A model generated the notes under the pieces. The model was not told where the DNA came from. It saw only the letters and a list, made by a program, of their open reading frames with translations, and did not search any database. A stretch of DNA of 64,000 nt from sequence record MG589383; one strand, given 5' to 3'. This document shows, piece by piece, positions 47,476-50,215 of the stretch. This DNA comes from Shigella phage phi25-307. The translations under genes were made by a program, and so were the position numbers. Each line of letters starts with the position of its first letter. Position 1 is the stretch's first letter.

Positions 47476-47496
47476 CAAAAGGGAGCCGAAGCTCCC
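47476..47496 (-). terminator. terminator downstream of gene 52 (GGGAGC-UUCG-GCUCCC, U-tract)
   Basis: Minus-strand hairpin followed by TTTTGTG; upstream of motA promoter. Confidence 0.55.
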
Positions 47497-47572
47497 TAAT
47501 CGTGTTTGTCCAACCAATACAGCCAAATCACTAGTGCAGCTATTGCACCGAGAAATCCTAAGGCTAGGGCAC

Positions 47573-48898
47573 TCAAAGTGCCTCCAAGTCTTTAGTGTAC
47601 TCTGTCACAACATCAGTAGACTTCCAATACTCATTTTCTTCTTTCTTAGCTTTAGCTTCTTCTGCCAGTTTACGTGCTTCGTCGGAAGTGATATGGAAGA
47701 TGTTAAGGCCTACCAGTTTATCGACATGTTCTTTATACATTTCGATTTGTGCTAGCTCTTCAGTCAAAGCTTTACGAGTCTTGCCCTGAATCACAATTTC
47801 GCCACTGATAACTTTTTTGATGAAGTGTGCCTTAGCAAAAGCCAGTTTAAATGCTTTTTCAGATTCAAGGATTTTGTTGTCAATACGTTTCTGAACGTAA
47901 GTCTTACGGACTTCAACAAAATCTTTGATTAAGTCCACTACGTTATCATAGACGGCTAATTTACCCTTTTCATTAATCACTGTGATGTTTTGTGAACGAC
48001 GTTCGATGAGACTAAAATCTTTCATGATTTTTTCATGACGTAGCTCTTCATCATCAGGAAGCGAGTACTCTTTACGGAACTTCACCTTAAACCCAAAGCC
48101 GTGTTCACCACAATCATCTTCCCATGAGATTAGACCTTTGTCTTCCAATGGGTCAAGAACCTTACTCACATACGTTTCACGGTCGAATTTATATGGGATT
48201 TCAGTTATCTGCATTTGAGTGCGAGATGTGAACTTATATGTTCCGTGAATCTCATAACGCCCATCAACTTCGTGTACTTCACCACGGAATTCCGGGAATT
48301 CAACTTTTGGCTTAGTGACATTTTTACCTTGAAGAGCTTGTAATACGGCCTTTTTTACCGATTTAAAACTATGAGGCAGAATATTTGTTGCGTAACCGGT
48401 TGCAATACCAGAGACACCATTCAAAAGAACTGTCGGAATAATAGGAAGATAGAATTTTGGTGGAATGTGTTCTTTATCTTCATGGGCTGGAGCATATTCA
48501 GTATCTTTATATACGTTATAGAAATTTTTACTTACACGAGCAAAAATATAACGAGATGCTGCAGCTTTTTGGACTGTTCGAGAACCAAAGTTGCCTTGGC
48601 CATCTAACAGTGGATAGTTGTTGTTCCATGTGTTAGCCATCAATGCACCTGCATCTTGTGCAGAAGATTCACCATGGTGATAACCTAAATCTGCAACACC
48701 GCCTGCAATTGACGCAAGTTTATGAAATTTTTCTTTATTACCACGAGCCAAATCTAACGCACGATGAACCACAAAACGTTGAACCGGCTTAAATCCATCA
48801 ATCATGTTTGGGATTGCACGGTTTTCAACGGTGTACATCGCGTATGCTAAGGCTTCGTTATCAATAATACTTTTTAGATTACGAGAATTCAATTGCAT
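47573..48898 (-). CDS. 52: DNA topoisomerase II medium subunit gp52 (GyrA-like, 441 aa)
   Basis: Size (T4 442 aa), synteny, GyrA/ParC-type N-terminal region with putative catalytic Tyr; not searched. Confidence 0.9.
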   Translation of the reverse strand: MQLNSRNLKSIIDNEALAYAMYTVENRAIPNMIDGFKPVQRFVVHRALDLARGNKEKFHKLASIAGGVADLGYHHGESSAQDAGALMANTWNNNYPLLDGQGNFGSRTVQKAAASRYIFARVSKNFYNVYKDTEYAPAHEDKEHIPPKFYLPIIPTVLLNGVSGIATGYATNILPHSFKSVKKAVLQALQGKNVTKPKVEFPEFRGEVHEVDGRYEIHGTYKFTSRTQMQITEIPYKFDRETYVSKVLDPLEDKGLISWEDDCGEHGFGFKVKFRKEYSLPDDEELRHEKIMKDFSLIERRSQNITVINEKGKLAVYDNVVDLIKDFVEVRKTYVQKRIDNKILESEKAFKLAFAKAHFIKKVISGEIVIQGKTRKALTEELAQIEMYKEHVDKLVGLNIFHITSDEARKLAEEAKAKKEENEYWKSTDVVTEYTKDLEAL

Positions 48899-48902
48899 AT
48901 TT

Positions 48903-49043
48903 TCACCATATTAATGAACGAATAGCCATTATAACATCTGAAATGAAAAGCACTACTTGGATTAGCCCAAACATCACACCATAGTACAGAACCGTAAGCA
49001 ACAACAAGAGCCCGAAGGCTCCTGCTAAGATTTTCTTAATCAT
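48903..49043 (-). CDS. small hydrophobic membrane peptide (46 aa; not in ORF track)
   Basis: Hand-translated MIKKILAGAFGLLLLLTVLYYGVMFGLIQVVLFISDVIMAIRSLIW; stop 4 nt before gene 52 ATG; start overlaps upstream peptide stop (ATGATTAA). Confidence 0.4.
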   Translation of the reverse strand: MIKKILAGAFGLLLLLTVLYYGVMFGLIQVVLFISDVIMAIRSLIW

Positions 49044-49188
49044 TACTCGCCTTTAATACGTTAAAAAGAGCTAAGACCGCTAAGGTACCTTGTGACACAG
49101 CCTGTTGAAATACTGTTGTTTCGCCTGTAACTAAAGTGTTAACGAATAAAAACGACCAACACAGCAATGCAATAATCCATGCTACCAT
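49036..49188 (-). CDS. small membrane protein (50 aa; not in ORF track), candidate ac-like
   Basis: Hand-translated MVAWIIALLCWSFLFVNTLVTGETTVFQQAVSQGTLAVLALFNVLKASND; SD GAGGT upstream; T4 ac is a 51-aa membrane protein in this position. Confidence 0.4.
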   Translation of the reverse strand: MVAWIIALLCWSFLFVNTLVTGETTVFQQAVSQGTLAVLALFNVLKASND

Positions 49189-49240
49189 TTTAATTACCTC
49201 AAAAATAAATTAAAGGCCTAGCTTAATAGGCCTGTATAAA

Positions 49241-49687
49241 TTAGTAACTCTGCAGAATGAATTTGAAGTTATCAGCCAGAAGACGGTTCATTTCAGTGAG
49301 TGTTTGATATTCTGATGTATGGTTGCGAGTGAATGCCAGAGCCAATTGACCTTTACCGTAACCAGTAGTCAGGGGTTTCATGTTCTTAGCTGCAACAAAG
49401 ATTACATCATATTCAATATTGTTAGTGCCCATGGTACGGGCTAGTTGCGAACGGCCTTGACGAATGTGAGAAAGAATTGCATCTAACCCTTGTTTAGAAC
49501 GTTGACGTCCTACAAAGAATCGTGCTGCTACTTGACGCCAATCAGATGAACCTTTAACAAAGAAGTAAAAACCTTCACGAGAACGAAACTCTTTAGAAAC
49601 TTCAGAACCGTATTCGCCATTACGAACTACTGCAACAACTTCACCGCCAACTGCCAGAAGGTCTTTACGAGTTAAATATTTGGACAT
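49241..49687 (-). CDS. ndd: nucleoid disruption protein Ndd (148 aa)
   Basis: Collinear with T4 Ndd ([71 protein letters not shown]). Confidence 0.9.
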
Positions 49688-49727
49688 GCTAATTTCCTCA
49701 ATTGATTAATGATTTTATTATCCAATG

Positions 49728-49762
49728 AGAGCATTATACTCTGCTCTCAAGAGTTTGTACAA
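49728..49762 (-). promoter_or_regulatory. early promoter upstream of ndd with palindrome GAGAGCAGAGTATAATGCTCTC over the -10
   Basis: -10 TATAAT inside an inverted repeat; near-identical cassette at 21218-21250. Confidence 0.45.
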
Positions 49763-49764
49763 TT

Positions 49765-49965
49765 TTATTCGGCTATATCAGAACGTTCAAAAAGCTCTTC
49801 AACAGTTAAACATTCGGTGTCGTCCTCAATAAAGAATCGAGTCCAACACGTTGGGGCGATACAGTTATGAGTTTGTCCGGCGATAGAAGCTACACGAATA
49901 AGCTGCTGACCATTATTCAGAACAAATTTTTCACCAATTTCAACATCTTTAAAAAGCTTAGCCAT
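49765..49965 (-). CDS. hypothetical protein (66 aa)
   Basis: ORF with early promoter upstream (about 49995-50030). Confidence 0.45.
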   Translation of the reverse strand: MAKLFKDVEIGEKFVLNNGQQLIRVASIAGQTHNCIAPTCWTRFFIEDDTECLTVEELFERSDIAE

Positions 49966-50215
49966 TTTGTGTTCCTCATGTTTCAGTAGGACTACTATAC
50001 CATAATCCTACCTTGATGTAAACAATTAAATTACATTAAAATATGTTAAAGCCAACCATGTTCCAGTGAACGAACATACGATGTAAAAACCCGTATCACA
50101 AATTGTTCTTAGTACAATAAGAAGCGCATTTTTCATAAGTACCTCAATGCAATTGAAAATATTATACAAATCATAGGGATACTAAGCAACCATATTCCGA
50201 TCCACATTTTAGAGC

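Follow-up and report, generated by a model that had tools for sequence, protein, structure and literature searches.

The ac phenotype of bacteriophages has been known since the 1960s. In T4, infection with wild-type ac is sensitive to acriflavine; on this compound ac deletion, frameshift or G38R mutants give approximately 1e10 plaque-forming units (PFU)/ml compared with approximately 2e6 for the wild type, and E. coli carrying only ac on a plasmid becomes more sensitive to acriflavine (3 log) and to ampicillin (bioRxiv 10.1101/2025.06.30.662393). Because plasmid-borne ac sensitises cells to both compounds, the authors of that 2025 preprint proposed that the Ac protein blocks AcrAB-TolC, a proposal repeated in a 2026 PNAS paper (PMC13250531). 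Between ac and gene 52, T4 encodes gp52.1 (Y16J_BPT4; PF24129, phrog_3595), which is listed as 'uncharacterized 5.1 kDa protein in Gp52-ac intergenic region'. T4 deletions from 52.1 to rIIB or denB are viable and the gene is therefore non-essential (PMC9712115; PMC6071114); viable strains include a GT7-type deletion from gp52.1 to rIIB (PMC9712115) and sa-delta-9, in which, in addition, phosphatidylglycerol synthesis is no longer stimulated after infection (PMC6071114). Here we describe the corresponding locus, positions 48,903 to 49,188, in a 64,000-nucleotide stretch of Shigella phage phi25-307 (sequence record MG589383; the whole stretch is referred to as the window). We conclude with high confidence that its two open reading frames (ORFs) are the Mosigvirus orthologues of T4 ac and 52.1, that is, real genes for small inner-membrane proteins of the early, non-essential denB-ndd-ac-52.1 cluster.

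The ac/52.1 pair is already known, being annotated in T4, in RB69 and in the RefSeq record that holds these exact proteins. Sequences identical to the 50- and 46-residue products are present in RefSeq/GenBank for Shigella phage phi25-307 (YP_010093309.1 and AYD79466.1), the 50-residue ORF itself being an exact match to YP_010093309.1. Relatives carry the upstream ORF as 'Ac acridine resistance protein' (RB69, APCEc01 and many more Mosigvirus records), and the downstream ORF appears in Mosigvirus as 'hypothetical protein', 'gp52.1 conserved hypothetical predicted membrane protein' or 'putative 5.1 kDa protein in Gp52-ac intergenic region'. Since public records of this phage type already carry annotations for both genes, nothing in the gene pair itself is new, and the comparative details given below are refinements of a known system rather than a discovery.

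Identity of the two genes

The two genes and their junction are as follows.

49036-49188, minus strand: ac orthologue (Ac, 50 residues, ATG start), from the ORF listing and a match to phrog_2501 (E 9.3e-22)
48903-49043, minus strand: gene 52.1 orthologue (gp52.1, 46 residues, ATG start), from matches to Pfam PF24129 and phrog_3595
49036-49043, minus strand: start/stop overlap of ac and 52.1, eight bases ATGATTAA, a putative translational coupling junction, read from the sequence

An earlier note, made from the letters of the window, had described two ORFs of 50 and 46 residues chained by ATGATTAA, and the ORF listing and the sequence bear this out, on the minus strand. The ac stop codon lies inside codons 2-3 of 52.1, and the 52.1 stop, TGA (48905-48903), is followed by four nucleotides (AAAT) before the gene 52 ATG at 48898, exactly the spacing that had been reported. 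The strong hydrophobicity ascribed to both peptides is likewise evident: the grand average of hydropathy (GRAVY) is 1.10 for Ac and 1.81 for gp52.1, compared with a mean of 0.19 (standard deviation 0.65) over the 77 ATG-initiated ORFs of 40-60 residues in the window, among which they rank in the top 6.5% and top 1.3%, respectively. Their reported absence from the ORF track is correct but results only from a length cut-off, because the default minimum of the listing is 60 residues. Finally, the suggestion that the locus is the counterpart of the T4 ac/52.1 region, with small membrane peptides, is confirmed by homology of the upstream product to the Ac family and of the downstream product to gp52.1/DUF7396.

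Synteny is conserved, with both genes lying between ndd and gene 52 on one strand. The 701 bases around the locus are 98% identical at the nucleotide level to approximately 150 genomes of Mosigvirus (RB69-like T-even phages of Escherichia and Shigella), and by this sequence comparison the source phage is a Mosigvirus, an RB69-like T-even phage.

Sequence and predicted structure of Ac

Window Ac matches phrog_2501 (E 9.3e-22), to which T4 Ac (E 2.2e-25) and the corresponding ORF of Klebsiella phage KPN6 (E 1.1e-17) also belong. In a direct BLASTP comparison, 35 residues align with T4 Ac at 37% identity (E 2e-7), and tblastn matches Tequatrovirus ac genes at 51-58% identity over residues 6-50 (E 5e-8 to 2e-10); with a profile built from Mosigvirus sequences only, T4 Ac scores approximately 28 bits, which is below database-wide significance. 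In an alignment of Mosigvirus, T4-type and Jiaodavirus sequences, W11, T18, V26, Q29, A30, Q33 and G34 are invariant, and Q33-G34 of the window protein aligns with Q37-G38 of T4, where the G38R substitution confers acriflavine resistance (bioRxiv 10.1101/2025.06.30.662393). The protein thus combines significant similarity to the T4 Ac family with a core that includes the glycine equivalent to T4 G38, the hairpin shape described below, and the family's location.

AlphaFold2 predicts a helical hairpin for Ac, with helices at residues 2-21 and 25-49 and a turn at TGE (predicted local distance difference test, pLDDT, 80.6); an ESMfold model of T4 Ac has the same two-helix shape (bioRxiv 10.1101/2025.06.30.662393). 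Classical transmembrane hydrophobicity is reached only by helix 1 (19-residue Kyte-Doolittle average 2.07), while helix 2 (TVFQQAVSQGTLAVLALFNVL) is amphipathic, with a Q/S/T/G face and a 19-residue average of approximately 0.9-1.0.

The C-terminus of Ac varies within Mosigvirus, and DNA and protein alignments place the variation at a short A-run.

49052-49054, minus strand: A-run AAA (AAAA in most Mosigvirus), from DNA and protein alignments

The AAA allele (window, phi25-307 and G2285) yields a 50-residue Ac ending in KASND with the 8-nucleotide overlap, whereas the AAAA allele (RB69 and most Mosigvirus) yields a 48-residue Ac ending in KGE with a 1-nucleotide TAATG overlap; a third allele gives a 49-residue Ac ending in KGEQ with an ATGA overlap. 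A start/stop overlap with 52.1 is therefore retained with all of the C-terminal alleles (48, 49 and 50 residues), and on these alignments the window allele represents the rarer, T4-like frame among Mosigvirus.

Conservation and predicted structure of gp52.1

The product of 52.1 matches Pfam PF24129 (DUF7396) over its full length (residues 1-46 of 46) with 81.1 bits against a cut-off of 27, matches phrog_3595 (E 1.8e-23), and is 74% identical to T4 gp52.1. Beyond passing the Pfam threshold, it shows the 45-46-residue motif pattern of its relatives, MIKK...YYG..(F/Y)G...VLFISD...S..W, including the N-terminal KK and C-terminal W, as well as adjacency to gene 52 and purifying selection. With tblastn, gp52.1 retrieves more than 900 phage records, from Tequatrovirus, Mosigvirus, Dhakavirus, Gaprivervirus, Jiaodavirus, Marfavirus and Kanagawavirus.

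Compared with T4 (NG86), the proportions of synonymous (pS) and nonsynonymous (pN) differences in 52.1 are 0.79 and 0.17 overall, and in codons 19-30 (LYYGVMFGLIQV) pN is 0.00 with pS of approximately 1; against Bp7 and VR7, pN in these codons is 0-0.09. Eleven lineages were sampled, consisting of eight annotated genera and metagenomic contigs, one T4-related and one Bp7-related. All 11 preserve an open frame of exactly 45-46 codons that starts with ATG and encodes KK followed by a hydrophobic body, and Y20, Y21, G22, G26, S43 and W46 are kept, several of them with synonymous variation. The gap between 52.1 and gene 52 is 4-5 nucleotides in 10 of the 11, the exception being VR7 (53 nucleotides). 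Judged from these substitution patterns, gp52.1 is under strong purifying selection at the protein level and is a real coding gene.

AlphaFold2 models gp52.1 as one continuous helix (residues 2-45, pLDDT 96.7), with the N-terminal KK and an invariant D36 within the hydrophobic stretch. On this model, the protein could sit in the membrane as a tilted helix, as a helix kinked at YYG, or as an oligomer.

The position upstream of 52.1 is occupied by different genes in different genera of the Tevenvirinae: a phrog_9347 protein in Dhakavirus (Bp7) and Marfavirus (F48), and a third type in Kanagawavirus. These non-Ac ORFs are small and hydrophobic and belong to phrog_9347 or to no family; in the loci of relatives they lie at the following positions.

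L023, 978-1139
L025, 1068-1208
L027, 1004-1138
L010, L015, L019 and L020, 1347-1508

Profile comparison relates these ORFs neither to Ac nor to gp52.1, and distant homology of Ac with the phrog_9347-type ORFs or with gp52.1 itself was rejected, with hhalign probabilities below 1%. The junction formed by a C-terminal ND and ATGATTAA is nevertheless kept despite unrelated upstream ORFs (ATGA in Kanagawavirus). An overlap between the upstream ORF and the start of 52.1, reading ATGATTAA, ATGA or TAATG, is present in every genus examined, and the Shine-Dalgarno (SD) sequence of 52.1 is at most weak in five of six genera. We take gp52.1 to be a conserved membrane helix; our best guess at its role, although we regard it as rather improbable, is that of a common membrane partner or scaffold for whichever small membrane protein occupies the variable upstream slot. 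Less likely still is a stricter version, a two-peptide membrane module of which gp52.1 would form the constant half, the upstream slot being an exchangeable cassette. If this module were real, the ac phenotype could depend partly on gp52.1 and many 'ac' deletions and frameshifts would be polar double mutants; the 52.1 ORF would then also be a triple-use sequence, specifying a peptide, a hairpin following ac, and the gene 52 middle promoter with its SD sequence.

Translation and regulatory signals

Five signals on the same strand accompany the two genes.

49197-49200, minus strand: SD sequence GAGG of ac, 8 nucleotides before the ATG, from the sequence, with an anti-SD duplex of -6.9 kcal/mol
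48903-48907, minus strand: GGTGA, an SD-like element of gene 52 over the last codon and stop of 52.1, with an anti-SD duplex of -2.8 kcal/mol
49002-49027, minus strand: RNA hairpin UAGCAGGAGCC-UUCG-GGCUCUUGUUG in codons 6-14 of 52.1, with a CUUCGG-type loop, from the minimum free energy structure
48928-48952, minus strand: MotA-box middle-promoter-like site (TGCTT-N14-TATAAT) for gene 52, in codons 31-39 of 52.1, from a pattern match
49204-49233 (stem 49233-49214), minus strand: intrinsic-terminator-like hairpin (AGGCCT-ATTAAGCT-AGGCCT) with a T-rich tail, from a terminator scan

In most of the lineages examined, the upstream ORF likewise follows an equivalent GAGG. Over eight lineages, anti-SD energies of the upstream ORF range from -5.7 to -6.9 kcal/mol (-3.3 in F48, where the start is uncertain), the SD thus being strong in seven of the eight, whereas those of 52.1 range from +0.9 to -4.2 kcal/mol; the 52.1 SD is weak in the window (-4.2 kcal/mol) and essentially absent in T4, KPN6 and Kosakonia phage 305 (+0.4 to +0.9 kcal/mol). 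The 8-nucleotide ATGATTAA junction is also found in T4, Bp7, VR7, KPN6 and F48, including lineages with an unrelated upstream ORF. Given a weak or absent SD together with a conserved overlap, 52.1 is likely translated by termination-reinitiation coupling. Ribosomes finishing ac would re-initiate on 52.1, both peptides would be made together, and translation of 52.1 would reach to within 4 nucleotides of gene 52. If 52.1 is coupled to ac in this way, ac deletions and frameshifts would be polar on 52.1. The design and reading of ac mutants would be affected by the coupling of 52.1 to a swappable upstream ORF, by the likely polarity on 52.1, and by the presence of a promoter-like site and a hairpin in the 52.1 frame.

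The hairpin in 52.1 starts 8 nucleotides past the ac stop codon, and in the window its stability exceeds that of 99.7% of synonymous recodings. T4, Bp7, VR7, KPN6 and F48 also have a hairpin at this place, built from other bases that encode other residues. Each lineage was tested against its own synonymous recodings, since the stem register differs slightly by genus and column-wise covariation does not apply; p was 0.000-0.005 in five lineages and 0.03-0.07 in two, and two Kanagawavirus sequences were not significant. A dinucleotide-shuffle control gave a z of only -1.35, and because this control is weak we rate the hairpin as suggestive only, as a terminator-like or mRNA-stabilising element. 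The homologous hairpin is annotated as a rho-independent terminator in the SA79RD record, and terminator features somewhere under the 52.1 match also appear in the ATK47, G50 and fPS-90 records; an Rfam search of 48700-49800 returned no family at E <= 1. Early ac transcripts may end, or be stabilised, at this hairpin.

The pattern TGCTT-N14-TATAAT is matched five times in the window, compared with 1.1 matches expected, and the SA79RD record annotates the site in 52.1 as a T4-type middle promoter. Codons 31-39, which read GTGCTTTTCATTTCAGATGTTATAAT, are almost invariant at third positions in the 11 lineages, and pS there is 0.15-0.5 compared with 0.4-1.2 in codons 19-30. Because of these nearly invariant third positions and the depressed pS, the residues VLFISDVI, the most conserved in gp52.1, appear to be dual-coded. 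With a MotA-type middle promoter and an SD sequence inside 52.1, gene 52 could be transcribed independently of ac and 52.1 at middle times.

Proposed function and alternative explanations

Within the inner membrane, Ac is predicted to form a two-helix hairpin whose polar face is made up of Q/S/T/G residues, and it would raise the intracellular level of acridines and other efflux substrates, as in T4. Interference with AcrAB-TolC efflux is, by analogy with the T4 work, the likeliest single route by which it might do so, although we hold this tentatively. The earlier note's guess that a host transporter is modulated agrees with the current idea that Ac blocks AcrAB-TolC, which is itself an unproven hypothesis (bioRxiv 10.1101/2025.06.30.662393). 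If the idea is true, Ac would be a natural phage-encoded inhibitor of an efflux pump.

Several points weigh against the assignment of these functions to the window proteins. The AcrAB-TolC model originates as a hypothesis in a single preprint, and functional data on ac come from T4 and T2, with Mosigvirus Ac assigned by relationship. Window Ac is only approximately 36% identical to T4 Ac over its full length, with pN of 0.45 and pS of 0.56 against T4 and a pN/pS of 0.55-0.8 over long distances; given such fast evolution and low identity, specificity could differ. A search of the Ac-family profile against Protein Data Bank (PDB) sequences found no chain at E <= 10, and Foldseek of the AlphaFold2 model of Ac against the PDB found no match. 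For gp52.1, a literature search on DUF7396 found no paper, the protein appearing only as a deletion boundary; the predicted single 44-residue helix exceeds the bilayer, so that the real topology may differ; and part of its conservation (codons 31-39 and the start region) may be nucleotide-level, arising from promoter and junction constraints. The profile of gp52.1 similarly gave nothing at E <= 10 against PDB sequences, and Foldseek of its AlphaFold2 model gave no match in the PDB; these negatives say little for either protein, because single helices and hairpins are too small. Searches of the PADLOC and NCBIfam libraries gave no meaningful matches.

The principal competitor to efflux interference is that Ac renders the inner membrane more permeable to acridines, as in the classical uptake model of Silver, several hairpins associating through the polar face of helix 2 to form a small pore or lipid defect. 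Helix 2 is only moderately hydrophobic and carries the conserved Q29, Q33 and G34, and early work on T2 and T4 attributed the phenotype to greater uptake (summarised in bioRxiv 10.1101/2025.06.30.662393), all of which suits this explanation. Sensitisation to ampicillin by plasmid-borne ac, however, was read by the preprint authors as loss of efflux, though a general rise in permeability could also yield an ampicillin effect, and no leakage or toxicity of Ac alone is reported in that study (bioRxiv 10.1101/2025.06.30.662393). We consider increased permeability possible but less probable than interference with AcrAB-TolC.

Other explanations concern whether the ORFs are genes at all and what gp52.1 does. 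Frames of 46 and 50 codons are short, and an AT-rich genome holds many small ORFs, but family matches at E 1e-21 to 1e-23, retention across hundreds of phage genomes, purifying selection, and an SD sequence with a coupling junction make chance open frames a negligible explanation. A subtler proposal is that 52.1 is not a functional protein but an incidental frame over a regulatory spacer between ac and gene 52, comprising the hairpin, the middle promoter and the SD sequence, with conservation at the nucleotide level. This would account for codons 31-39, whose third positions are nearly invariant, which match the MotA-box promoter and whose pS is 0.15-0.5, for the conserved hairpin in codons 6-14 where amino acids vary freely (pN approximately 0.6), and for the gene 52 SD within the last codons of 52.1. 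It is hard to reconcile with a pN of 0.00 in codons 19-30 under saturated synonymous change against T4, with a 45-46-codon frame kept in 11 of 11 lineages, and with the existence of a Pfam family, and we judge it very unlikely. Equally improbable, in our estimation, is a role for gp52.1 as membrane anchor or assembly factor of the T4-type topoisomerase (gp52/gp39/gp60). The constant 4-5-nucleotide gap to gene 52 in 10 of 11 lineages would favour such a role, and T4 gp39 and gp52 were reportedly recovered in membrane fractions in old fractionation work. The gap is nevertheless 53 nucleotides in VR7, and with a middle promoter inside 52.1, gene 52 would be expressed independently of 52.1. Orthologous gp52 is found without an upstream DUF7396 ORF in Erwinia phage Cronus (75% identity), Acinetobacter phage AM101 (72%) and GEC-3S (61%; identities over 200 residues), which argues against an obligatory partnership. 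T4 deletions of 52.1 are moreover viable and none is reported as DNA-delay (PMC9712115; PMC6071114). The preferred reading therefore remains that both ORFs are orthologues of the T4 genes and encode small inner-membrane proteins.

Neighbouring genes and other small open reading frames

The genes on either side of the pair are readily identified.

49241-49687, minus strand: ndd, nucleoid disruption protein, 148 residues, upstream neighbour, from matches to PF06591 (E 4.3e-89) and phrog_1102 (E 1.8e-56)
47573-48898, minus strand: gene 52, topoisomerase II medium subunit, 441 residues, downstream neighbour, from matches to phrog_551 (E 1.8e-217) and PF00521 (E 6.5e-78)

Window Ndd is 58% identical to T4 Ndd, and window gp52 is 88% identical to T4 gp52. 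The 52-nucleotide spacer between ndd and ac (49189-49240) holds the terminator-like hairpin listed above, which is an annotated terminator in SA79RD and G2285. In T4 this interval carries stp, encoding a 26-residue activator of PrrC; tblastn of T4 Stp against the whole 64-kilobase window gave a best E of 0.073, elsewhere and on the other strand, and no Stp-like ORF was found in the ndd-ac interval or anywhere else in the window.

Two further small hydrophobic ORFs were observed on the minus strand. One, of 36 residues (MKNALLIVLRTICDTGFYIVCSFTGTWLALTYFNVI; 50026-50136), lies upstream of ndd.1 and belongs with the other tiny genes for membrane proteins of the denB-52 cluster; the APCEc01 record lists it as hypothetical, and tblastn with T4 ndd.2-ndd.4 gave no match to it. 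The other, of 26 residues with a TTG start (MSALALGFLGAIAALVIWLYWLDKHD; 47496-47576), overlaps the gene 52 stop by 4 nucleotides, at a place where T4 has motA.1. By tblastn it does not resemble T4 MotA.1, relatives carry no annotation for it, and it is probably not a gene.

Distant Straboviridae that lack DUF7396 still have small transmembrane ORFs, one to three in number, in the interval from ndd to gene 52 (Cronus, L028, 176-714; AM101, L029, 562-720; GEC-3S, L031, 410-772), and a Cronus ORF at 349-504 resembles the phrog_9347 type (…AGVWVPSWG…). This pattern fits the view, taken from T4, that small, non-essential genes for membrane proteins are clustered in this region.

Comparison with known systems

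AcrZ is a single bent transmembrane helix that tunes rather than blocks AcrB. The E. coli protein (49 residues, AcrB-binding) offers only a functional analogy to Ac, which it resembles in size, in predicted inner-membrane site, and in the proposed target, AcrB or AcrAB-TolC. It differs in that AcrZ is a single helix whereas a two-helix hairpin is predicted for Ac, and in that AcrB binding by Ac is only hypothesised. AcrZ chains are present in the PDB, and neither the profile search of the PDB nor Foldseek linked Ac to them. Having no sequence or fold match in the PDB, Ac is probably not an AcrZ homologue, yet it could act on the same pump.

T4 gp52.1 is much closer to its window counterpart, having the same length of 46 residues, the same 4-nucleotide spacing to gene 52, and an identical MIKKIL start, LYYGVMFGLIQVVLFISDVIM core and terminal W. 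The two differ in residues 7-18, the first half of the helix, which have diverged (AGAFGLLLLLTV versus GYSLALAALLVA), and the embedded RNA hairpin is formed from other bases.

T4 Ac (51 residues) shares with window Ac (50 residues) its phrog (phrog_2501), its strand, its position after ndd and upstream of gene 52, and its overlap with 52.1. The likeness extends to a two-helix hydrophobic architecture, a core of W, T, VF-Q-A and QG, the 8-nucleotide ATGATTAA overlap, and a C-terminus ending in SND. The window N-terminus is 4 residues shorter, its turn is TGE where T4 has DA, and stp separates ndd from ac in T4 whereas a terminator-like hairpin occupies that space in the window. The acriflavine assay suggested in the earlier note corresponds to the classical phenotype of T4 ac. 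The nearest described relative is Ac of RB69 and other Mosigvirus (NP_861957.1, 48 residues), which is 94% identical to window Ac and has the same locus and annotation.

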